A stretch of DNA of 23,475 nucleotides, taken from positions 1 to 23,475 of the IMG/VR virus record IMGVR_UViG_2529293249_000015. One strand, 5' to 3'. The notes beneath the pieces are model-generated. The model did not search any database, was not told the DNA's origin, and saw only the letters and a program-made list of their open reading frames with translations. This stretch comes from a virus. Taxonomy: Duplodnaviria > Heunggongvirae > Uroviricota > Caudoviricetes. The stretch's first letter is position 1. Every line of letters starts with the position of its first letter. The translations under genes and the position numbers were made by a program. Below are positions 1 through 13,371 of the stretch, piece after piece.

Positions 1-258
1 ATGCAAACCGTTATTTTTGGTCGTCCGGGTTGCCCTTACTGTGTGCGTGCAAAAGATCTGGCTGAGAAATTGAGCAATGAACGCGATGATTTTCAGTATC
101 AGTATGTAGATATTCGTGCGGAAGGGATCACTAAAGAAGATCTACAACAAAAGGCAGGTAAACCCGTAGAAACCGTGCCGCAGATTTTTGTCGATCAGCA
201 ACATATCGGCGGCTATACCGATTTTGCTGCATGGGTGAAAGAAAATCTGGACGCCTGA
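1..258 (+). CDS. grxA: glutaredoxin 1
   Basis: 85-aa ORF with the CPYC active-site motif (GRPGCPYCVRAK), matching E. coli Grx1 in length and sequence; sits beside ybjM/ybjL as in E. coli. Confidence 0.9.
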   Translation: MQTVIFGRPGCPYCVRAKDLAEKLSNERDDFQYQYVDIRAEGITKEDLQQKAGKPVETVPQIFVDQQHIGGYTDFAAWVKENLDA

Positions 259-267
259 TCGTCTGAC

Positions 268-300
268 AAGCCCTCGCGTTGAGGGCTTTACTGATTTTTT
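268..300 (+). terminator. hairpin plus T-run between convergent grxA and ybjM
   Basis: 8-bp stem (aagccctc / gagggctt) with 5-nt loop at 268..288, followed by a T-rich stretch ending in TTTTTT at 295..300; lies between the 3' ends of convergent genes. Confidence 0.4.
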
Positions 301-665
301 CTGTGCTGTGGTTTAAACAAACTACTGATAAATAAGAAACACAGTGCCCCCAGCGCACACCAGAACACCGCGCTTAGTAACCATGCCAGCTCTTGCCAGA
401 ATGAGCGCGTCGGTGAAAAAAACAGCCGCATAATGAGCATCGAACAGGGTGCCGCCAGCATTGCGCCAAACAGAGGTTTCAGGACTTCTCTACGCTGTGA
501 AAAGAAGCTGGCGACTGCTCCAGGAAGAATGAAAAATAGCAAGCCGATTTCAGGATGCCCGGCAGCCCGAAAAGCGCCTTTCATGTGCGTCGCCAGAAAA
601 AGGCACACCACAATGAAGAGGACAAAACAGCAGATTGCCCCCGCCCAACGTTGTTTATGTTTCAC
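288..665 (-). CDS. ybjM: inner membrane protein YbjM
   Basis: 125-aa hydrophobic ORF, N-terminus MKHKQRWAGAICCF, in the expected position between grxA and ybjL. Confidence 0.8.
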   Translation of the reverse strand: MKHKQRWAGAICCFVLFIVVCLFLATHMKGAFRAAGHPEIGLLFFILPGAVASFFSQRREVLKPLFGAMLAAPCSMLIMRLFFSPTRSFWQELAWLLSAVFWCALGALCFLFISSLFKPQHRKNQ

Positions 666-934
666 TCGTTCCTCCTGACACTGCGTCTATCGAACACATT
701 TTTCGCCAGTGTGGCGTTCAGTAAGATAAAGCCGCTTCGCATTCCATGCTAATATAGGCCAACGCAATTCATATAGCCGTTGATACCTAATGTGATTACA
801 CTAGTAAAATATATTGTTACTTTACTATCGTTTAGGTGCGCTGAATGAATCTGCGCCCTGAATTCTGGTAAAAAACATTATCGTAAATTACCATTTCTTT
901 CAACAGCTTACTAGTAAACAAGAAGTTAGCCTCC

Positions 935-2620
935 GTGAATATAAACGTCGCCGAATTGTTAAATGGGAATTACATTCTGTTATTATTTGTGGTCCTCGCG
1001 CTTGGGCTATGTCTCGGAAAGTTACGACTTGGTTCGATCCAACTGGGTAATTCCATTGGCGTTTTAGTCGTATCGCTGTTATTAGGCCAACAACATTTCA
1101 GCATTAACACCGATGCGCTTAATCTTGGCTTTATGCTGTTTATTTTCTGCGTCGGGGTCGAAGCCGGACCGAACTTTTTTTCCATTTTTTTTCGCGATGG
1201 GAAAAATTACCTAATGTTAGCACTGGTGATGGTTGGCAGTGCGCTGGTGATCGCCTTAGGGTTAGGTAAGCTGTTTGGCTGGGATATTGGCCTGACGGCC
1301 GGTATGTTAGCAGGCTCTATGACGTCGACACCGGTTCTGGTCGGTGCTGGCGATACACTGCGTCATTCCGGCATGGAAAGCAGGCAGCTCTCACTGGCAC
1401 TGGATAATCTGAGCCTCGGGTATGCCTTAACCTATTTAATCGGTCTGGTGAGTTTGATTGTTGGTGCGCGTTACTTGCCGAAATTGCAGCATCAGGACTT
1501 ACAGACCAGCGCCCAGCAAATCGCCCGCGAACGTGGCCTGGACACTGATGCCAACCGTAAGGTTTATTTACCGGTGATCCGCGCCTATCGCGTCGGCCCG
1601 GAGCTGGTGGCCTGGACCGACGGCAAAAATCTGCGTGAACTGGGTATTTATCGACAAACCGGCTGCTACATTGAACGTATTCGACGTAACGGGATTCTGG
1701 CAAATCCAGACGGTGATGCCGTGCTACAAATGGGCGATGAAATAGCGTTGGTAGGCTATCCCGACGCCCATGCCCGACTCGATCCCAGCTTCCGTAACGG
1801 TAAAGAAGTTTTCGATCGTGACCTTCTCGACATGCGTATCGTCACTGAAGAAGTGGTCGTTAAAAACCATAACGCTGTAGGTAAACGTCTCGCACAACTG
1901 AAGTTGACCGATCACGGTTGCTTCCTTAACCGCGTCATTCGTAGCCAGATTGAGATGCCGATAGATGACAACGTCGTGCTTAACAAAGGTGACGTTTTAC
2001 AAGTCAGCGGTGATGCCCGTCGCGTAAAAACCATCGCCGATCGCATCGGCTTTATCTCGATTCACAGCCAGGTCACTGACCTGCTGGCATTTTGCGCCTT
2101 CTTTGTTATTGGGCTGATGATCGGGATGATCACCTTCCAGTTCAGCACATTCAGTTTCGGCATGGGGAACGCTGCCGGGTTGTTATTCGCCGGAATTATG
2201 CTGGGCTTTATGCGTGCTAACCACCCGACCTTCGGTTACATTCCGCAAGGTGCATTAAGCATGGTGAAAGAGTTCGGCTTGATGGTGTTTATGGCAGGCG
2301 TTGGTCTGAGCGCCGGTAGCGGTATTAATAACGGCCTGGGCGCGATTGGCGGTCAGATGTTGATTGCCGGATTAATTGTCAGTCTTGTGCCCGTGGTTAT
2401 CTGTTTCTTGTTCGGTGCTTATGTATTGCGAATGAACCGCGCACTGTTGTTCGGCGCAATGATGGGCGCACGCACCTGCGCGCCGGCAATGGAGATCATC
2501 AGTGATACAGCTCGCAGTAACATCCCTGCGCTGGGCTACGCGGGCACCTACGCAATCGCCAACGTCCTGCTGACGCTGGCAGGGACAATCATCGTCATGG
2601 TATGGCCAGGATTAGGATAA
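935..2620 (+). CDS. ybjL: putative AAE-family transporter YbjL
   Basis: 561-aa polytopic membrane ORF with GTG start ([20 protein letters not shown]), central soluble TrkA-C-like region, matching YbjL in length and N-terminus. Confidence 0.85.
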
Positions 2621-2732
2621 AACTGAAGTTGCCCTGAAAATGAAATTTTTTTGCACAACCGCAGAACTTTTCCGCAGGGCATCAGTCTTAATTAGTGCCA
2701 CTGCTTTTCTTTGATGTCCCCATTTTGTGGAG

Positions 2733-2775
2733 CCCATCAACCCCGCCATTTCGGTTCAAGGTTGATGGGTTTTTT
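2733..2775 (+). terminator. intrinsic terminator-like hairpin downstream of ybjL
   Basis: Perfect 10-bp stem cccatcaacc (2733..2742) / ggttgatggg (2760..2769), 17-nt loop, followed by TTTTTT (2770..2775). Confidence 0.5.
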
Positions 2776-2855
2776 GTTGCCTGAAATTTATGCCTTTTAA
2801 AATCATGATGTTAGAAGCAGTGTTTTTTAACGATGGCGACAAATTGGCGGCAGAG

Positions 2856-3074
2856 TCAAAGAGAGAGCGCCACCTGTCCTGATTTCATTGGATGCGGCTG
2901 AACCGGATTTGACTCTTTTGGCGTTGCAATCGAACGAACAAAAGTTTCATGGGTAACAAAAGTATGGCTGCAGTTAATGTTCTGGCACTGGTTGTAACGC
3001 TCTTTGGTCAATGAAGATACCTGAAAACTGCTGCGAGTATGGGCGGCACTTCCACACAGTGGGCAAATCATCAT
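2856..3074 (-). CDS. ogr: Ogr-family zinc-finger late transcription activator
   Basis: About 72 aa from MMICPLCGSAAHTRSS with C-x2-C ... C-x4-C pattern (CPLC ... CQNINC), resembling P2 Ogr; located directly after D as in P2. The tracked ORF extends 11 codons upstream; I take the MMICPLC start. Confidence 0.85.
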   Translation of the reverse strand: MMICPLCGSAAHTRSSFQVSSLTKERYNQCQNINCSHTFVTHETFVRSIATPKESNPVQPHPMKSGQVALSL

Positions 3075-3164
3075 TTTTCGAGTTCTCCTCATTTTTGCTA
3101 AATTCACAATAATGATACCGCATTATTCCATTTTGAAAACTTAAAAGTTCTCCATTGCGAAGAA

Positions 3165-4265: not shown

Positions 4266-4747
4266 GACAGCAGCCCTCCCACCGTTTTACTGATATCACT
4301 TAAGGCAGATGTTGCCGTGTCCTGCAGATTATTCAGTTGCGTACTGAGATCACCGAACATATCGGACAGGGATTCATCCACCCGTTTGAGCGACAGGGTG
4401 AACTCAATCCGGCGCGGCATACCGTCGCGGAAAAACTCCGTTTTAGACTGATTTAGTCCCTCAATCACATACATGCCGTAAATCGTGCCGCTGCCTTCAA
4501 TCAGAGGCCATGCTTTCCCCTGTTCTGCCATCTGCTCCAGTGCCAGCAACGACAGCCTGCCGCCTGTTATCTCCGGCATAAGAACACCAGAAAGCGTCAG
4601 CATGTCATTGTCCGGTCCCAGAAACTGCGTTGACGGGCGTCGGTTAACCCGGCTGTTAGCCGCATGTCGCCAGCTGCGCTGATACTGCAGCTCCTGATAC
4701 GGCACGGTGCGCAGCATAAACACGTACAATCCCAGCACCATCATCAT
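4262..4747 (-). CDS. U: tail protein U
   Basis: 161-aa ORF (MMMVLGLYVFMLRTVPYQELQYQRSWRH) resembling P2 gpU; start overlaps the T stop. Confidence 0.9.
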   Translation of the reverse strand: MMMVLGLYVFMLRTVPYQELQYQRSWRHAANSRVNRRPSTQFLGPDNDMLTLSGVLMPEITGGRLSLLALEQMAEQGKAWPLIEGSGTIYGMYVIEGLNQSKTEFFRDGMPRRIEFTLSLKRVDESLSDMFGDLSTQLNNLQDTATSALSDISKTVGGLLS

Positions 4748-7700
4748 GCGTCGTATCCCCCCTGATCGCTGTAGTTACTCCTGGCTTTTGCCTTCAGCCT
4801 GCGTTCACGTTCATCAAGCTGGCGGGCCACCTCCCGCGCAATATCCTGCGCACTTTGTCCTGGCTGCGTCTGAATGATGATCTGCGTCGGTGCCTCAATC
4901 CGTTGAACGGGCGGCACAGCAGCTGCGCGACTCACCATCGCTTCACCGCCTTTCGCGGGAAGCGCCAAAGGATGCAACGGTGGAAGCTCTACTGGCGCGG
5001 CAGCAACGCCCATCATTCCGGCAACAACGGCAGCCAGTGCAGCTGTATTTCTCCGGCTGGTCACATTTGCCGGGCCGTTAACAATTTCCGGCCCGTTTTC
5101 ACCGACGATGCCAAACTGCCCGCGCGGGATATACCCGCCGCTGTCATACATCCCCGCAAAGCCATATCCCCATGACGGAAAACCACCTGATGGCATCATC
5201 ACTTTGCCGTCTGCATTCACTGTTGCGGGTTGCTGACGCGTCACGCTTTCCGGCAGTTTCGCCTTTGCAGCCTCTTTACTGATAATGCCGAGTTTCTCCA
5301 GCAACCAGGAAACGCCGGATTTCAGGGAGTCCAGCGGATGCATGACCATATTCAGCCCTTCCGCCAGTGCCTCCCCGAATCGTCGCCCCATTGCCGCTGC
5401 GCTCTGCAGTTCGGCAGAGGTCGACTTAACGGGCGTCAGCAGATCAGTAAACCAGCCCCACAGCGCCTGCACTTTGTCGCCAATCCACTGGAACACGGGC
5501 TTAAGCGGTTCGAACGCTGCACTGATGGGACCTGCCGCCGCTTTGAATCCTTCCACCACGCCACCGAGAAATGCGGTGATGGGTTGCCAGTATTTCCAGA
5601 CAACCAGCGCCACGCCCGCCAGTGCAGTAACCACAAGACCTATCGGACTGAGCAGAGCACCTAACAGACCAGATATGGCATACAGGGCAACGCGCAGCAT
5701 CGCCAGTGGACCAGATGCCAGTACTCGCAGCACCGTGCCTGCGGCGGCCAGTCCACCGCGCAGTACCGCCAGAGGATTCATAAACATCACAGCAACAGCA
5801 CGTAAACCGGATAATCCAGACTGCAAAAGTGCAACCGGCGCACCTGCTACAGTTTTCAGGACATTTCCCGTCAGTGATGCCGTGCGGCGCAAAGACGACA
5901 ACGGCGCAGTAAGTAAACCTGCGGCGTTGCCCGATGAAGCAAGCCCGCGTCGCAGCAGTGCCAGTGGTGCGCCAGCCAGCCAGGACAACGCGCTGCTGGT
6001 TCGAGTTACTGCTGCCGTAACGGAAGATAACGTTTTGATACCCAACACAGAGAATCCCAGACGGATCACTGCCAGCGGCCCCAGCACTGCAGCCAGCGCC
6101 ACCGCTAAGGTGCCGAGGCCGACGGTAACCGCAGCCACAACAGCCGATGCTTTCATCAGTGTGCCTGTCAGTTCCGGGTTAGCTTCCACCCAGCGACGCA
6201 ACGCCCCCGTGACGCTTTTCACCGTGTACAGAATATCCATCAGCGGCTGGCGCAGCGTTTCGCCCAGGCTGCTGAAGGTGTTCTGCGCTCCGGTTTTAAC
6301 CAGCAACCACTGCGCAGAAAGTGAATCCTTGTTAATGTCGGATTCTTTCTGCATGGAGCCAAGCGCATCATTGCCCGCTGTCAGTTTTAACTGACGCTGC
6401 AGTTCCGGCAGGTTGTTTGCCAGTTTCGCCGCGTCATCGCCAAACTCTTTACCAAACAACATAGTCATGGCAGACAGGCGCTTGTCCTGCGGCAGCGCGT
6501 TTACCTTCTCCAGCACGCGCTGGATAGTTCCCATCGCATCCTTCGTCATCTGCTTTTCAATCACTTCAGGATTGAGTTTCAGCAGATTCATCCCTTCAAA
6601 GAAACTCTTGCTTTGCATGGTGGCAATGGACAATTCACGCACCATCGCGTTTGCTGCACTGGCTGCAACCTCTGGCGCAGCGCCCAGTGTCAGGAAGGTG
6701 GAACCCAGCGCCGCCGCTTTACGATAATCCAGACGGTCAGCCACACCGCCCAGACGTTGCATCACATCAATGATGTCTGCCCCTTTCGACATGGCGTTAT
6801 CATCCAGATAGTTCAGCGCATCACCGAGCTGTTCAATATTGCGGGTGGGGATTTTGTAGAGCTGGGCGATTTTCCCCAGACTTTCTGACAGTTCATCCGC
6901 TGGCAGCTCAAAGGCTGTTGCCGCCTTTGCTGCCGTACTGGCGAAGGCCAGCAGGTCACGTTTCTGATCTTCCCAGCTGTCGTCAGGGTTTGCGACGTTC
7001 ATGCGCGCACCACCTTCAACCAGTGCAGCGAAGTCCACCGCACCGTTTTCCATCGGCAACTGTTCGCTGGCAGCCTTGATGGCATCCTGCATTTCATAAA
7101 AACGTGCAGTGCGGTTGCCATTATCGTCACGCAGACCATTGACCTGCTTTGCCACACCTTTCATGGCATCTTCCATGCTGGTATAGCTTTTTACTGCCGC
7201 CATCACTGGCGCACCCATTGCCAGCCCTGCAGCCGTGGTGGTGGCTCCGGCACCTGCAATACGATCACGCACCTCCAGCGAACGGGCATAACTGGCACGC
7301 GCTGCATTCATCCTACGCTGAGCTTCCCCCAGTCGCTTCAGCCGCGCCTCCTGTTTCGAAAGTTCCTGGTTATAACGTGATGTTTCACGGGCTAAACGGG
7401 CAGTTGCTCCCGCATCGTCTTTCGCAGAAATTCCCGCCCGGTACAGTTCAGCACGCACTAGCGCCGTCTGCTGCTGCAGCTTTTTCTGGCGTTCTTCCAG
7501 GCGCTGAACAGCCAGCCGTTGACGGCCCAGAGCAACAACCTGACGTTGCGAAGGCGGCCCCATCGCTCCCAGTTCCTGACTGAGCAAATTTGCACGCTGG
7601 CGGGCATAGTTCAGCCTGTCGCCTAATTTCTGATTTTCTGCCTGCAGCTTTCGGAAGCTGTCCAGACTGCTCCCGGCCTGATCAAGCTGCTTTATTGCAT

Positions 7701-7821
7701 CGCGGGATTTTTTGACAGCAGCAGCCAGTTCTCTTGAACTGGCCTGCGCAGATCGAAATGGGCGGGTGAGCTTGTCAACCGCATTAAGAATGACCTGCAG
7801 ACGCAGGTTGTTATCACTCAT
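4744..7821 (-). CDS. T: tail tape measure protein
   Basis: 1025-aa ORF with coiled-coil-like N-terminal third, hydrophobic Ala/Leu/Gly-rich repeat block and Gly-rich C-terminus; directly downstream of E/E'. Confidence 0.9.
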   Translation of the reverse strand: MSDNNLRLQVILNAVDKLTRPFRSAQASSRELAAAVKKSRDAIKQLDQAGSSLDSFRKLQAENQKLGDRLNYARQRANLLSQELGAMGPPSQRQVVALGRQRLAVQRLEERQKKLQQQTALVRAELYRAGISAKDDAGATARLARETSRYNQELSKQEARLKRLGEAQRRMNAARASYARSLEVRDRIAGAGATTTAAGLAMGAPVMAAVKSYTSMEDAMKGVAKQVNGLRDDNGNRTARFYEMQDAIKAASEQLPMENGAVDFAALVEGGARMNVANPDDSWEDQKRDLLAFASTAAKAATAFELPADELSESLGKIAQLYKIPTRNIEQLGDALNYLDDNAMSKGADIIDVMQRLGGVADRLDYRKAAALGSTFLTLGAAPEVAASAANAMVRELSIATMQSKSFFEGMNLLKLNPEVIEKQMTKDAMGTIQRVLEKVNALPQDKRLSAMTMLFGKEFGDDAAKLANNLPELQRQLKLTAGNDALGSMQKESDINKDSLSAQWLLVKTGAQNTFSSLGETLRQPLMDILYTVKSVTGALRRWVEANPELTGTLMKASAVVAAVTVGLGTLAVALAAVLGPLAVIRLGFSVLGIKTLSSVTAAVTRTSSALSWLAGAPLALLRRGLASSGNAAGLLTAPLSSLRRTASLTGNVLKTVAGAPVALLQSGLSGLRAVAVMFMNPLAVLRGGLAAAGTVLRVLASGPLAMLRVALYAISGLLGALLSPIGLVVTALAGVALVVWKYWQPITAFLGGVVEGFKAAAGPISAAFEPLKPVFQWIGDKVQALWGWFTDLLTPVKSTSAELQSAAAMGRRFGEALAEGLNMVMHPLDSLKSGVSWLLEKLGIISKEAAKAKLPESVTRQQPATVNADGKVMMPSGGFPSWGYGFAGMYDSGGYIPRGQFGIVGENGPEIVNGPANVTSRRNTAALAAVVAGMMGVAAAPVELPPLHPLALPAKGGEAMVSRAAAVPPVQRIEAPTQIIIQTQPGQSAQDIAREVARQLDERERRLKAKARSNYSDQGGYDA

Positions 7822-8304: not shown

Positions 8305-8820
8305 TCAGAGGCCGAGGGCGTTGCGGTGCGCTTCCATCAGGTCCACACCGTCCACAATTTCCACCATGTTGATAAGGTCCACTTCATAGAGCACCTCACC
8401 ATTGATGGTCAGCTTCGCGTAGCTGTTGGTACTGGTCACTTTGGTGGTGTTGCTTTCGCCCGTCTTCCACTCGCCGGAATCCACTTCTTTGTGACGTCCA
8501 CGCACGACAAGCTCCACGGCCTGCACTTCCCCGGTATCGTCACGCTGAATAGAGCCGGTAAAGCGCAGCTGGATGCCATCCACCGTGGCTTTACCCATCT
8601 GTTTAAACAGCAGCAATTCAGTACCACCAATGGAAAATTCTGTGTCCAGCGCACTGTCATCAAGCCCCAGATCCACATCCACCGCACCCGGCATTCCGCC
8701 GCCGCGATACTTCTCATATTTGCGGGTAAATTTCGGCAGCGTCAGCGACTCAACGATCCCCTGCCAGTTGTTCCCGTCGTTAAACAGGTTCAGGTGTTTT
8801 AATTTGCGTGGTAAAGCCAT
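8305..8820 (-). CDS. FII: tail tube protein FII
   Basis: 171-aa ORF (MALPRKLKHLNLFNDGNNWQGIVE) resembling P2 gpFII; downstream of the sheath gene. Confidence 0.9.
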   Translation of the reverse strand: MALPRKLKHLNLFNDGNNWQGIVESLTLPKFTRKYEKYRGGGMPGAVDVDLGLDDSALDTEFSIGGTELLLFKQMGKATVDGIQLRFTGSIQRDDTGEVQAVELVVRGRHKEVDSGEWKTGESNTTKVTSTNSYAKLTINGEVLYEVDLINMVEIVDGVDLMEAHRNALGL

Positions 8821-8829
8821 GTTGTCCCC

Positions 8830-10002
8830 TTACGCGCTGACCTGGCTGGCGAAATTCACCAGGTACTGATCGGTGATGCGCTGACGCAGCATCAGGTTTT
8901 CAAGTGGCGGCACTGGCGTGTAGTCGTAGTCGATGGTGAATTTTCCGGCTTTCAGCGTGTCTTTGTCGTTCACCGACTCATCCAGCCAGCAATCACCACC
9001 AATGAGATAGCCCTGACTGATCAGGCTGCGCATTTTGGCGCGGATACCTTCGATAATGTCGCGGGCCAGCGACGGGTTAAGCGGTTTATCCACCGCCCAC
9101 ATGTGTGCTTCTGCCATCGTGTCCATCAGCACCTGCGCCGTGCGGGTGTAGTTTTCGAAGGCAAAGAGCGGGTCATCACTCAGGCAGCGGGAACCCCAGA
9201 AGCGGAAACCGTCTTTACGCACAAGCGTGGTGACGTCGTTCTGGTTCAGCAGACCTGCATCGGTTGCCGGGTCCTGCAGATCCCAGAACACATCTGCAGA
9301 AATTCCGGTGACACCGTTCACGCCCACGTTGGACAGGCTTTTGTGCCATCCGGTCTGCTCGTCAATTTTGGCGCGCAGACCAAGCGCACGGGCGGTGGCA
9401 TATGCCGTTGCTTCGGCATTCAGCACCGTGTCCCAGCCAGTAAAGTCAGGCCAGATCAGCATCCCTTCGCGCTGGCTGAAGTTTTCGCGGTAAGTGATCG
9501 CCTCCTGCACTGTCTTGCAGCCATACGCTGACAGGTAAGCAAATCCACGCAGGCTTTGCGCCACGCTCAGCAACTCAGTAGCTACCGCCTTGGTGTCGTG
9601 GCCTGGCACGCCGAGAATGCGCGGTTTAACGCCGAGCTGTGACTGGGCAGATAACAGGGCTTTCATACCTGTTTTTTTACCTTCAGCAGTCACTGCGCCG
9701 ATGATATTGGTCGTGGTTTCGTCTTCCGTTTCACCCTGCGGCACACGCACAACAATGGTCACGGGTTTTGCCTGGTCAGCGATGGCATCCAGCGAACGGG
9801 CCAGAGTACCTGACTCACCCGCTTTACCGCTGGCAGTCAGCACATCAGTGATCAGCACGGGTTTATTAAGAGGAAACATTTTTGCATCGGCATCATCGCC
9901 CGTGCAGACCATACCCACGATGGCGGTGCTCACCGTGGTAATAGATCGGGTGCCTTCGTTGACTTCAACAACGCGCACCCCGTGGTGGTAATCCTGAGCC
10001 AT
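8830..10002 (-). CDS. FI: contractile tail sheath protein FI
   Basis: 390-aa ORF ([21 protein letters not shown]) resembling P2 gpFI; strong AGGAGG RBS upstream. Confidence 0.9.
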
Positions 10003-10078
10003 AGTGGCGAACCTCCTGATTGGATTAGGCTTCGCCCTATGTTGAAGTGATTGTGCCTGACAAACAGCTAAGCGCAGT

Positions 10079-10096
10079 TGTACCGTTATTCACACA
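10079..10096 (-). promoter_or_regulatory. candidate Ogr-dependent late promoter element upstream of FI (P_F)
   Basis: TGT-N12-ACA dyad (coding strand TGTGTGAATAACGGTACA), then 34 nt, then CAACAT, then about 40 nt to the FI start codon. Confidence 0.45.
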
Positions 10097-10144
10097 AAAT
10101 GACGGTATTTGTCTGCTTGCAGGGATAATCAAAATAATGCTGAT

Positions 10145-10711
10145 TCAGGGGGATTCATTACTCTTATTTGCCGGAAATTTTCTATAAATTGTGGAAACAC
10201 CCACATCAAAAATCAGTGCAATACGCTGTCTTGATTCTCCGCCCTCGAGTAAGCGTCCAATCTGTGCCCACTGTTCGGTGGTCAACTTAGGACGGCGTCC
10301 ACCTACTCTGCCTTTATCACGAGCTGCAGCCAGCCCCGCCCTGGTACGTTCAACTATCAGTTCGCGTTCCATTTCAGCTAGGGCCCCCATGACATGAAAA
10401 AAGAAACGGCCCATTGGGGTGCTGGTATCAATACTGTCAGTCAGGCTTCGGAAATTCACGCCACACTGACGCAACTCTTCTATCAGCGTAACAAGATGCC
10501 GCATACTGCGCCCCAACCTGTCCAGCTTCCAGACAACCAGAGTGTCTCCTGCCGATAGTGTCCTGAGCAGTTTTTTAAGCCCCGGTCTGTCGGACTTAGT
10601 GCCACTGATTTTATCCTCAAAAATCCGCTCACATCCCGCGCAGTTCAGTGCATTACGTTGCAAATCGGTGTTCTGGTCATTTGTTGACACGCGTACATAG
10701 CCAATAAGCAT
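10145..10711 (-). CDS. serine-recombinase DNA invertase (Gin/Hin/Cin/Pin family)
   Basis: 188 aa from MLIGYVRVSTNDQNTDLQRNAL with catalytic Ser motif and C-terminal helix-turn-helix; near-identical in stretches to Gin/Hin. The tracked ORF has a 15-codon upstream extension; the ATG at 10711 has an RBS. Confidence 0.9.
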   Translation of the reverse strand: MLIGYVRVSTNDQNTDLQRNALNCAGCERIFEDKISGTKSDRPGLKKLLRTLSAGDTLVVWKLDRLGRSMRHLVTLIEELRQCGVNFRSLTDSIDTSTPMGRFFFHVMGALAEMERELIVERTRAGLAAARDKGRVGGRRPKLTTEQWAQIGRLLEGGESRQRIALIFDVGVSTIYRKFPANKSNESP

Positions 10712-10778
10712 GATCAATCCCCTGAATAAAAACCGTGGATGATGCCAGTTAGCCATTATCTCTGCATTTTCATAAACG

Positions 10779-10809
10779 TTGGTTTGGGAGAAGCGGCAAA
10801 ACGGAATGT
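10779..10809. repeat. left inverted repeat of invertible segment (recombination site)
   Basis: 31-bp sequence ttggtttgggagaagcggcaaaacggaatgt, a perfect reverse-complement match to 12293..12323. Confidence 0.8.
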
Positions 10810-11134
10810 GGGAACAGGTTCAGGTCAGATACCGGATATGAGTAGCTTTGCATCAGCACTCTCTTCGAGTGGCTACCAGAAATTACCTTCTGGACTAATT
10901 ATTCAGTGGGGGGCGGCTGTTGCTGGAATTGGCAGCACTGGGGGTACAGGAAATGTAGTCTCATTCCCTGTTGCATTCCCCAGATATTGCGCCCAAATAA
11001 TTACATCTTACGATAATGGAAGCTCGTCAATCATTGCTGGTGCAGCAGGAAACCAAACTACCACTCAATTTCTTTTACGTTGTGGTGCAACCGGTGGTAG
11101 TTATAACTTCCGCTGGTTAGCCGTGGGGTATTAA
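10781..11134 (+). other. alternative tail-fibre C-terminal (receptor-binding) cassette, currently unexpressed orientation
   Basis: Begins in frame at the repeat with GLGEAAKRNVG, the same residues found at the H crossover point, and continues as a different fibre tip (...QIPDMSSFASALSSSGYQKLPSGLIIQWG...). Confidence 0.7.
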
Positions 11135-11136
11135 TT

Positions 11137-11580
11137 ATGGATAACTACTATTTTTCACCTTCGACTTTGGCATTTTATCCTGAAGATCTCATGTTGTTAT
11201 ATGAAGCAGCAGGAACTTTACCTGATGATATTATTTCTGTGCCACATGAAATATTTGCTACTTATTCAGGAGAGCCACCACGAGGAAAAAAGCGAGGTAC
11301 TACAGAAGATGGGCAGCCCACCTGGAGTAATCTGCCGCCTTTAAGTCATGAGGAAGAAGTTGAGGTTGCGGACGCCCAAAGACAGTTTCGTATTGATGAG
11401 GCGAACGACTACATGAATAGTAAGCAATGGCCAGGTAAAGCCGCTATTGGTCGTCTGAAAGGCGAGGAACTGGCGCAATATAATTCGTGGCTGGATTATC
11501 TGGACGCACTGGAGCTGGTCGATACTTCCGGTGCGCCAGATATTGAATGGCCTACACCTCCGGTAACTCAGGCCAGCTAA
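11137..11580 (+). CDS. tail-fibre assembly protein, alternative-orientation copy
   Basis: 147-aa ORF ending in the conserved tail-fibre-assembly motif VDTSGAPDIEWPTPP; follows the alternative fibre tip. Confidence 0.8.
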   Translation: MDNYYFSPSTLAFYPEDLMLLYEAAGTLPDDIISVPHEIFATYSGEPPRGKKRGTTEDGQPTWSNLPPLSHEEEVEVADAQRQFRIDEANDYMNSKQWPGKAAIGRLKGEELAQYNSWLDYLDALELVDTSGAPDIEWPTPPVTQAS

Positions 11581-11947
11581 TCTCAGGAGCCGTCGAAGTG
11601 TCGACGGCTTTTACTTCTTTTTTGTAGTCCATCCAGGCAGATAGTTTTTCTTTATCTGTACTGCTGATATCACCAAGCATTAATTCCACCCGCCAGTCAG
11701 CTGTGACATTATCGGCATGAGCAAGTAACTGCATTCGCTGATTTTCAGCACGTGCGACATAATCAATCGCCGGAGATTTCAGTACCGGTAAACCATTTTC
11801 ATCTGACGTGATTAATTTCCCCCCTTCCTGCTGTCCGGCAATTAATTCATTGTATAAGTCTGTACTTATCTCAACAATGTCAGCAGACATGTCGCTGTTT
11901 ATACCATCAAAGAAAAAACCATTAGTCGATTTTGAGAAATAAATCAT
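11552..11947 (-). CDS. tail-fibre assembly protein, active-orientation copy (P2 G position)
   Basis: 131 aa from MIYFSKSTNGFFFDG, ending in VDTSTAPEISWPELP; starts just after the H stop; overlaps the opposite assembly gene by 29 bp at the 3' ends. Confidence 0.8.
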   Translation of the reverse strand: MIYFSKSTNGFFFDGINSDMSADIVEISTDLYNELIAGQQEGGKLITSDENGLPVLKSPAIDYVARAENQRMQLLAHADNVTADWRVELMLGDISSTDKEKLSAWMDYKKEVKAVDTSTAPEISWPELPEV

Positions 11948-11955
11948 AGATATAC

Positions 11956-13371
11956 CTATACACCGATTGCTACCCAAAAACAGGACCTTTCATATTTGAC
12001 AATTTCTCCCTGAGATATACCGCCAACAATTATATAGAACTGTGATTTGCTGATATCAGAACAGTTCGCTATGCCCATTGCAGATATACCAGCCACCGAC
12101 GTTGTATGTGGCACAGCCAACAGCGCAAGTGAACGATTTGGGAATGTTACCGGGTAAGTCACCGTATAGTTTGATGCTCCACTGACAATACCCCACTGAA
12201 TAATCAGACCTGAAGGGAGTTTTTGAAACCCCGTTGATGAAAGTGAACTGGCAAACGCCGCCATATCCGGAATTTGGTTTTGCTCGTTACCTACATTCCG
12301 TTTTGCCGCTTCTCCCAAACCAAGGTATGTGAGAAGACCAGTTACATCCTTTCCACTCAAATTAGTCAGCGTATTGTCCAGCGGTTGTTTACCTGCCAGT
12401 GCATTAAGCATTGTCGTGGCAAAGTTCGGGTCATTCCCCAGCGCCGCCGCCAGTTCGTTCAGTGTATCCAGTGCCGCAGGTGCAGAACCCACCATTGCCG
12501 CAATCGCCGATTTCACAAATGCCGTGGTGGCAATTTGTGTATTGTTGACCGACTGTGCCGCAGTAGGTGCGGTTGGCGTTCCGGTGAGTGCCGGACTCGA
12601 CAGCGGCGCTTTCAGTGCCAGCGCATTGTTAATGGTGGTACTGAATTTCGGATCATTGTTAATGGCTGCGGCTATTTCTTTCAGCGTGTCCAGCGTGGCT
12701 GGCGCACCATTAATAAGGGCCGTCAGTGCCGCCTGTACAAACGCAGTGGTCGCAACCTGCGTGGTATTATTCCCCGCCGCTGGCGTTGGCGCTTTGGGGG
12801 TTCCGGTAAATGTCGGGCTGGCTTTTGGCGCGTACTGTGAATGCGGGTCCGGTGCGGCAAGATGTTTTGCCATCTGATCATCCGCGTACACCTTCAGCTC
12901 CAGTGCCTTGTCATCCACATACTTGCGGGTTGCCAGCACTACAGCAGGGTCGATTTTCAGGGTGATATTGTCCGTGCTGCTGGTAATCAGCACCATGCGC
13001 ACGGTCTGAGTGCGCCCGCTACCTTCAGCCAGTTGCGGCTTATAGCTTTCCGGGCAGTTGCCCACGGCAATCAATGCCCCGGACTCATCAAACAAGCCCA
13101 CTTCACGTATCCACCAACCGCCCTCGTTTTCAGGGATCACCTGTTCGGCAATAATCTGGCTGCTGTTCTGCGGGTCGATATAAAGCATATTCAGCGCAGC
13201 CCGGCGTTTCTCATTTACCAGTGCCGTCTGCTTTGCGTCCGGCGTTGGCAATACTCCACCGCCATCGCCCACCGCCATATGGGTAATTTTTAGCGGCACA
13301 CCGAGCGCGGCGGCGCTGGCAAGTTTCGCCGCGCCAATATCCGTCAGCAGGGTATAAAATTTTGTGCTCAT
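11956..13371 (-). CDS. H: tail fibre protein H
   Basis: 471-aa ORF with P2 gpH-like N-terminus (MSTKFYTLLTDIGAAKLASAAALGVP); the C-terminal 122 aa lie inside the invertible segment. Confidence 0.9.
   Translation of the reverse strand: MSTKFYTLLTDIGAAKLASAAALGVPLKITHMAVGDGGGVLPTPDAKQTALVNEKRRAALNMLYIDPQNSSQIIAEQVIPENEGGWWIREVGLFDESGALIAVGNCPESYKPQLAEGSGRTQTVRMVLITSSTDNITLKIDPAVVLATRKYVDDKALELKVYADDQMAKHLAAPDPHSQYAPKASPTFTGTPKAPTPAAGNNTTQVATTAFVQAALTALINGAPATLDTLKEIAAAINNDPKFSTTINNALALKAPLSSPALTGTPTAPTAAQSVNNTQIATTAFVKSAIAAMVGSAPAALDTLNELAAALGNDPNFATTMLNALAGKQPLDNTLTNLSGKDVTGLLTYLGLGEAAKRNVGNEQNQIPDMAAFASSLSSTGFQKLPSGLIIQWGIVSGASNYTVTYPVTFPNRSLALLAVPHTTSVAGISAMGIANCSDISKSQFYIIVGGISQGEIVKYERSCFWVAIGV
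12293..12323. repeat. right inverted repeat of invertible segment (recombination site, inside H)
   Basis: Reverse complement is identical to 10779..10809; encodes GLGEAAKRNVG in the H frame. Confidence 0.8.
12382..12816 (-). repeat. tandem duplication of a roughly 70-aa module within H
   Basis: Two adjacent units, TGTPKAPTPAAGNNTTQVATTAFVQAALTALINGAPATLDTLKEIAAAINNDPKFSTTINNALALKAP and TGTPTAPTAAQSVNNTQIATTAFVKSAIAAMVGSAPAALDTLNELAAALGNDPNFATTMLNALAGKQP. Confidence 0.6.

Follow-up and report, generated by a model that had tools for sequence, protein, structure and literature searches.

The window, that is, the whole stretch of 23,475 nucleotides that was analyzed, begins in the host chromosome, since bases 1-2620 represent grxA, ybjM, and ybjL of E. 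coli with 100% identity to sequenced strains. Downstream of the host genes lies a P2-like prophage that looks apparently complete; its ogr, gpD, gpU, tape measure, tube, and sheath genes come before an invertible locus, and gpI, gpJ, gpW, and gpV are located past this locus and the fiber gene. The gene order tape measure, tube, sheath, invertase, segment, fiber, and gpI/J/W/V is that of a P2-type tail cluster. A contig of assembly GCA_946055615.1 matches the window at 99.99% identity. Three of the prophage genes preceding the invertible locus have the following coordinates.

4744-7821, tape measure
8305-8820, tube
8830-10002, sheath

The invertible segment comprises 1541 bp (10781-12321) and carries two 26-bp crossover sites at its ends. 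It contains two convergent pairs of genes, each encoding a fiber tip and a tail fiber assembly protein (chaperone), and is flanked by an invertase gene on one side and by the constant part of the fiber gene on the other.

10145-10711, minus strand: DNA invertase gene, a serine recombinase of 188 aa of the Pin/Gin/Cin/Hin group (Pfam Resolvase and HTH_7)
10739-10780, plus strand: 14-codon stub MMPVSHYLCIFINV, taken from the open reading frame list, which keeps the putatively silent tip in an ATG-started open frame
10767-10792, no strand: left 26-bp crossover site TTTTCATAAACG-TT-GGTTTGGGAGAA, identical to the pinE-proximal site of e14
10781-11134, plus strand: alternative fiber tip in the unexpressed orientation, 117 aa, Gp53-like C-terminal domain (Pfam PF21882)
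11137-11580, plus strand: alternative tail fiber assembly gene, 147 aa, with the 'long' end ...WPTPPVTQAS (Pfam Caudo_TAP)
11552-11580, no strand: 29-bp dual-coding overlap of the convergent assembly genes
11552-11947, minus strand: expressed tail fiber assembly gene, 131 aa, with the 'short' end ...WPELPEV (Pfam Caudo_TAP)
11956-12321, minus strand: expressed fiber tip, 121 aa, forming the C-terminal, invertible end of the 471-aa fiber gene (Pfam PF21882)
12310-12335, no strand: right 26-bp crossover site, reverse complement TTCTCACATACC-TT-GGTTTGGGAGAA, inside the fiber gene
12322-13371, minus strand: constant part of the P2-type tail fiber gene, an N-terminal tail-collar domain and shaft (Pfam Phage_tail_fib)

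The invertase scored 175 bits with Resolvase and 57 bits with HTH_7, both above the cut-offs, and is 85% identical at the amino acid level to PinE of e14 and 74% to Gin of Mu. It is full length, contains the catalytic-serine motif YVRVSTNDQ, and is transcribed away from the invertible segment. The Fis consensus GNNYRNNWNNYRNNC was matched once, at nucleotides 71-85 of the invertase gene, where the match is conserved in pinE and gin; a confident second site was not found. The left and right crossover sites have the inner half GGTTTGGGAGAA and the TT core in common and form a 46-nt inverted repeat (I1), with the central TT at 10779-10780 as the exchange point of the left site. Two copies of the 19-bp core, in inverted orientation, occur in the window (none expected from 100 shuffles). 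A search of the window with the core pattern found no third crossover site of the kind present in shufflons; because the pattern occurs at only two places, the locus is a simple two-state switch and not a shufflon. All four open reading frames of the segment are open. The stub lies opposite the region upstream of the invertase gene, in antisense, and is homologous to the annotated start of e14 stfE, MPFACYFFIFINV.

The constant part of the fiber matched Phage_tail_fib with 218.8 bits. Both tips belong to the Gp53-like_C family (PF21882, curated cut-off of 24.9 bits): the alternative tip scored 63.6 bits over profile positions 1-84 of 84 and the expressed one 52.9 bits over positions 1-83. The original prediction placed an alternative tip of about 117 aa after shared crossover residues, and its length is exactly 117 aa if counted from position 10781, the first base past the crossover dinucleotide, within the open reading frame 10739-11134 (plus strand). 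The two tips begin with the same 11 residues, GLGEAAKRNVG, and both contain the stretch QIPDM..FAS.LSS.G.QKLPSGLIIQWG. The proposed divergence beyond a short conserved stretch is borne out by BLASTP, in which the tips were 61% identical over the first 67 aa and the last ~50 aa could not be aligned. Among solved structures, PDB entry 4MTM matched both tips at the sequence level (E values of 1.4e-5 for the alternative and 7.7e-5 for the expressed tip). The R1 pyocin fiber 6CXB matched the alternative tip with E=7e-4, and pyocin fibers were weaker matches than 4MTM for both tips.

Both assembly proteins were assigned to Caudo_TAP (PF02413) with scores of 91.4 bits for the alternative and 85.7 bits for the expressed one, at a curated cut-off of 22.1 bits. 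The true start of the expressed assembly gene is the ATG at 11947 and not the TTG at 11977. The stop codons of the tips and the starts of the chaperone genes are separated by gaps of 2 and 8 nt. The two chaperones are only 25% identical, with the similarity mostly C-terminal, and a sequence search with the alternative chaperone found no relative with a solved structure. The 29-bp overlap of the convergent assembly genes, already proposed at 11552-11580, can be read directly off the sequence. It is also present in e14 tfaP/tfaE, LD91-1, KP12, EC11, SCU-485, and 28A18CPO003A, and in all 72 convergent assembly-gene pairs found at 80 IMG/VR loci. In each of these 72 pairs, a 'long' end (WPTPP..QA[RS]) is matched with a 'short' one (WPELPE[AV]), but the loci were gathered with a single-protein query and for this reason one type of pair dominates the sample (60 of 72). 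Pin-type segments have this 29-bp overlap as a constant feature.

The segment had been described, by eye, as more AT-rich than the flanking tail genes, and windowed calculation gave the same result. The GC content is 46.6% in the 800 bp originally described and 44.9% in the whole segment, vs 56.3% in both flanking stretches of the phage backbone; the wider flanks within the window have 53.4% (left, host DNA included) and 56.6%. At third codon positions, the GC fraction is 0.34-0.41 in the segment vs 0.58-0.66 in backbone genes. No other 1541-bp interval of the sequence is as AT-rich as the segment, while for the 800-bp stretch 5.8% of outside intervals are equally low, all of them among the host genes on the left. 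Low GC extends over the whole segment and is not limited to its unexpressed half, and the invertase gene is intermediate (49.9%). A comparable dip was found in the e14 P segment (45.6%), the Mu G segment (45.2%), and three sister prophages, and is characteristic of such segments.

With a probability of about 0.93, this P2-like E. coli prophage has an invertible host-range switch of the Pin type with two states, and the 10781-11580 region is the half that is currently OFF. The invertase would recombine the two inverted 26-bp sites at the central TT and flip the 1541 bp between them. Since the right site lies inside the fiber gene, each orientation would join the constant body in frame to one of the tips, and the same flip would put the matching chaperone gene behind the fiber gene, on the late tail-gene transcript. 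The unused tip and chaperone would then face the wrong way, without a promoter. As judged from Gin, Hin, and Cin, Fis and an enhancer inside the invertase gene would probably be needed. A population of lysogens could thus release phage with two kinds of fiber tips, hedging between hosts that differ in the recognized surface structure, probably lipopolysaccharide.

Consistent with the predicted silence of this module with its own assembly gene, the OFF copy lacks a fiber body and lies between Pin-type sites beside an intact invertase gene. A promoter scan, which is weak evidence, found no promoter-like site driving the module or located upstream of 10739, and a good ribosome-binding site was also not found upstream of 10739. 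The OFF copy is probably silent, because no promoter was predicted. Alternatively, it may be not fully silent: the open reading frame 10739-11134 could be expressed in the lysogen as a free Gp53-like protein that benefits the host. It might, for instance, sit on a surface receptor and keep other phages from adsorbing, as reported for e14 StfE2, which has the same build. Such a function could coexist with the switch. The ATG-started stub is conserved between the window (MMPVSHYLCIFINV) and e14 stfE (MPFACYFFIFINV), and the alternative tip is 42% identical to the C-terminus of StfP, which forms StfE2. According to PMC12529663, over-produced StfE2 reduced T2 adsorption to 3% at 8 min, but the effect attributed there to StfE2 itself came from over-production from a plasmid. 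Besides the missing promoter-like and ribosome-binding sites, a further objection is that the stub overlaps the crossover site as well as the region upstream of the invertase gene and may be conserved for that reason alone. Moreover, the prophage looks complete, so phage-side selection suffices to explain the module. We therefore consider a free protein unlikely.

Several findings bear on whether the OFF half can be switched on, as implied by the original prediction. Translation of the fiber body joined to the alternative tip at the central dinucleotide yields an open in-frame fiber of 467 aa. In a contig of GCA_012363355.2 (L004), 99.9% identical to the window, the sequence traverses the segment and exits into the reverse-complemented invertase-side flank; the junction keeps the base specific for the right arm and is the recombinant junction predicted for inversion. 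In principle, it could be an assembler mis-join through a 31-bp exact repeat. The predicted 802-bp junction of the fiber body and the alternative tip was found at full length, with 96.4% identity, in 16 complete E. coli genomes, of which EC11 was inspected individually and the other 15 were identified by junction search. The annotated fiber of EC11 is also 467 aa long and shows 92% identity in the constant part and 96.6% in the tip. In this strain, a deletion between the middle of the second assembly gene and a point within the invertase gene has removed the other tip and most of the invertase gene, locking the alternative tip on. Taken together, these data support a switch that probably works, with both orientations apparently occurring in nature, as seen in relatives of the window's strain. 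Among the contigs, the L004 junction alone is counted as evidence; the 1543-bp and 1481-bp contigs equal to the segment (L007-L010) were rejected as proof of inversion, since the 31-bp repeat could break L007 and L008. The latter are Logan contigs, presumably assembled with 31-mers. For the NCBI contigs L009 and L010, the breaks at the segment ends have no explanation from the 31-bp repeat.

Locked one-tip versions, EC11 with its deleted invertase and the 15 complete genomes found by junction search, raise the question of whether the switch is a fossil, with a segment that no longer flips and an alternative module that is dead cargo. SCU-485 could be viewed in the same way, as its partner chaperone gene is truncated and an invertase is missing from its vicinity. 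Such decay is very improbable here: the invertase gene has its full length and the catalytic motif, the four open reading frames of the segment are open, and a 99.9% identical sister assembly carries the recombinant junction. In addition, both crossover sites are intact and match the active site of e14, whose inversion was measured (PMC4272514 and PMC12529663). Coexisting orientations were measured in e14, a Mu prophage, and two P2-like prophages of EPEC (PMC4272514), and PMC12529663 gives TTGGTTTGGGAGAAGG as the repeat used for inversion of the e14 segment.

The switch proposed here resembles most closely the P segment of e14 with its PinE invertase (stfP-tfaP / tfaE-stfE-pinE). Besides the related invertase (85%), identical proximal site, and common inner half-site and TT core, both systems have two convergent modules of a tip and a chaperone, the same 29-bp overlap with one 'long' and one 'short' end, one tip type that is Gp53-like, and similarly AT-rich segments. 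Unlike the window, with its apparently complete P2-type tail and 471-aa tail-collar fiber, e14 is a defective element encoding a 209-aa fiber behind a Mu-type baseplate. The alleles are also different: the alternative tip is 42% identical to the StfP C-terminus, the window chaperones are 56% (alternative, over 100 aa) and 32% (expressed) identical to TfaP, the second e14 tip, StfE, is not Gp53-like, and the e14 segment is 1797 bp long vs 1541 bp in the window.

The G segment of Mu with Gin (S/U, S'/U') has the same layout, with the constant fiber part outside, convergent variable modules inside, and the invertase, related to that of the window (74%), just outside; its gix site, TTATCCAAAACC-TC-GGTTTACAGGAA, is related, and the segment is also AT-rich. 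In contrast, the Mu segment is ~3 kb long with much longer variable parts, its tips are unrelated to the Gp53-like domain, and U and U' do not overlap but are separated by a 28-bp gap that holds a separate bidirectional GC hairpin. The C segment of P1 with Cin is homologous to the Mu G segment with Gin, and inversion changes the host range of both Mu and P1. A P2-like phase-variable tail-fiber segment is known at the Fin invertase locus of the Salmonella prophage Fels-2. Invertible tail-fiber switches are textbook knowledge dating back to Mu, P1, and e14, and the locus described here is a standard example of them, closest to the e14 Pin segment but mounted on a P2-type tail. The P2-like prophages of E. 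coli E2348/69 (PMC4272514) share the phage backbone and a switch at the tail fiber gene, and both orientations were measured side by side in their cultures, but one EPEC locus is a shufflon with three repeats and four variants, while the window has two sites.

Concerning specificity, the expressed tip is 100% identical to the tip of Escherichia phage Cartapus, whereas in isolated phages the relatives of the alternative tip do not exceed 64% identity. Both tips are 36-42% identical to the short fibers of Shigella phages SfI, SfII, SfIV, and SfV. A tblastn search with both tips against 50,697 phage records revealed no phage with a characterized receptor above ~66% identity, a level reached only by uncharacterized P2-like phages. 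The R-type pyocin foot domains (6CXB, 6CL5, and 6CT8) and AP22 gp53 (4MTM) have the motif G(L/I)I(I/V)QWG in common with the tips, but the identity is low and no ligand is transferable. The proposal that a database search of the tips would predict their receptors thus failed, as neither matches a tip with a characterized receptor; for the same reason, and given the distinct GC profile, the original prediction does not have to be abandoned. The difference between the tips may imply different receptor specificities. Our best guess for the receptor is lipopolysaccharide, by analogy with P2 and pyocin fibers; R-pyocin fibers bind the lipopolysaccharide core, which provides a lead.

The Gp53-like fold common to both tips and the strong conservation of their proximal halves could also mean that the receptor is the same and only the antigen differs, so that the switch serves, for example, to escape from a host-encoded defense directed at the fiber. 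We consider this very unlikely, since the distal ~50 residues are unalignable and the distal tip travels with the fiber-binding domain of the chaperone, a pattern expected for a specificity determinant. The established difference in host range between the orientations of Mu and P1 also argues for distinct receptors.

The module was also predicted to be a horizontally exchanged host-range cassette, and this proposal gained considerable support. In strain SCU-485, the end of a 214-aa fiber and the adjacent tfa are 100% and 98% identical to the alternative tip and chaperone, respectively, with a DNA match of 99.3% over 803 bp. The SCU-485 fiber is encoded behind a Mu/e14-type baseplate (gp46, gp47, and YmfQ), beside O-antigen glucosylation genes. 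The alternative tip is 96.6% identical to the fused fiber of EC11, and different cassettes are present in sister P2-like prophages that use the same attachment site or whose backbones are 96-98% identical. Since the module is shared with a Mu/e14-type tail and near-identical P2-like backbones carry other cassettes, horizontal exchange of a host-range cassette appears well supported. In LD91-1, only positions 10841-11390 are replaced, which correspond to the distal tip and the N-terminal 85 residues of the chaperone, and the unit of exchange can apparently be smaller than 800 bp. The limits of this replacement fit the chaperone model of PMC9608196, which cites the Mu Tfa structure and in which a variable N-terminal domain binds the fiber tip and a conserved C-terminal domain drives trimerization. 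The tip together with the N-terminal part of the chaperone behaves as a portable unit across P2-type and Mu/e14-type tails, useful for host-range engineering of phages and tailocins. As for annotation, the fiber of this prophage should be listed with two alternative C-termini, and the open reading frame 10739-11134 should not be treated as a hypothetical protein in its own right. Assemblies from short reads are broken or wrongly joined at the locus.

Two hairpins were found in the coding ends of the assembly genes.

11497-11542, minus strand: hairpin with no U tract after it, -27.3 kcal/mol, z -4.6 vs shuffles
11585-11612, plus strand: terminator-like hairpin followed by TTTTACTTCTTTTTT, -18 kcal/mol, z -2.8

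The minus-strand hairpin is located directly past the stop codon of the expressed assembly gene, where the end of the alternative gene is encoded, and is more stable than synonymous recodings (z about -3.1). In the same way, the plus-strand hairpin starts 5 nt past the stop codon of the alternative assembly gene, where the expressed gene has its coding end, and exceeds synonymous recodings in stability (z -2.9). This arrangement is common to the overlapping pairs, in which each transcript has a hairpin of -18 to -30 kcal/mol past its own stop and within the coding end of the partner. Among 31 distinct sequences in four protein classes, comparison with synonymous recodings gave z of about -1 to -4.6; z was at or below -2 in 27 of them, and in 21 at most 3 of 300 recodings were equally stable. 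Solitary chaperone genes (U and U' of Mu, G of P2, and tfa of lambda) showed no excess stability (z between -1.7 and +2.4). Among these, lambda tfa serves as a matched control, since its protein end is one residue off that of the overlapping gene L015, and its value is -12 vs -23.8 kcal/mol. Owing to the palindromic DNA, the sense strand folds just as well. It is possible, at somewhat less than even odds, that these hairpins are selected 3'-end signals, either terminators or transcript-stabilizing elements, placed inside the coding sequence of the partner and replacing an intergenic terminator like that of Mu. The embedded pair of hairpins at a fixed overlap is the only mildly new item, and it makes a small testable addition to how compact segments end their transcripts. 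Within the pair of the window, a U tract follows only the plus-strand hairpin (11585-11612), which likely acts as a terminator once the alternative module is switched on.

The tail fibre assembly (chaperone) genes of the invertible segment, the alternative one at 11137-11580 (+) and the expressed one at 11552-11947 (-), are convergent and share their last 29 bp. Convergent assembly genes overlapped by exactly 29 bp in all 72 pairs found among 80 IMG/VR loci (one pair type accounted for 60 of them), and the pair of the e14 element has the same exact overlap. Every overlapping pair combined one "long" end (...WPTPPAVQAR) with one "short" end (...WPELPEA), and these tails are antisense readings of each other. 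In contrast to these Pin-type pairs, U and U' of Mu are separated by a 28-bp gap holding a bidirectional hairpin. In the window, the coding end of each of these two genes contains a stable hairpin:

11497-11542 (-), stable hairpin within the coding end of one assembly gene, just beyond the stop codon of its overlapping partner
11585-11612 (+), stable hairpin placed in the same way

The same coding-end hairpins were present in L001, L002, L015, E. coli EC11 (L011) and SCU-485 (L012), e14 (L014) and the IMG/VR loci (L016-L095), and were more stable than synonymous recodings, with z <= -2 in 27 of 31 distinct sequences. They were not found in the solitary assembly genes examined, namely Mu U and U', P2 G and lambda tfa. 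The coding-end hairpins could act as embedded terminators or could stabilise 3' ends.

The silent tip is housed in an ATG-started ORF of 131 aa (10739-11134, +). Ahead of the tip is a 14-aa stub, MMPVSHYLCIFINV, conserved between this ORF and e14 stfE. StfE2 of e14 has the same build of stub and tip; one paper (PMC12529663) reports that over-produced e14 StfE2 blocks T2 adsorption. Genome annotations label ORFs of this type "hypothetical protein" or "phage tail protein".

At the left end of the window (1-3107) three host genes come first and the prophage end follows, which places the prophage next to ybjL:

1-258, grxA, host gene
288-665 (-), ybjM, host gene
935-2620, ybjL, host gene
2856-3107 (-), Ogr-type zinc-finger gene in the prophage end

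The AT-rich spots near 400-650 and 2550 belong to host DNA and junction DNA. In this prophage the invertase and invertible segment take up the slot that separates the fibre genes from the sheath gene (10003-10144 region); phage P2 itself (L096/L098) has gene G there, together with a terminator and fun(Z), a non-essential cargo gene.

Automated annotation of the tail-fibre switch locus calls for caution because public assemblies built from short reads are broken or folded back precisely where this prophage has its crossover sites. The contig of GCA_012363355.2 (L004) ends, in its last 24 nt, in the recombinant junction, L005 terminates at the crossover, and four contigs (L007-L010) equal the invertible segment.

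The window's alternative tip and chaperone recur with 99% DNA identity in SCU-485 (NZ_CP053245.1, 5710-10249), closing a fibre of 214 aa that sits behind a baseplate of the Mu/e14 type. Immediately after them comes an O-antigen glucosylation cluster (yfdG, yfdH and a DUF6056 gene), placed as in Shigella serotype-converting phages. EC11 (NZ_CP073360.1, 4674-5095) carries a locked derivative: its fibre is fused to the alternative tip, the partner assembly gene has been cut short, and the invertase survives only as a C-terminal helix-turn-helix remnant. A junction search detected this fusion in 16 complete genomes (EC11 alone was inspected individually), isolated from human, poultry, pig, sheep, cat and dog.
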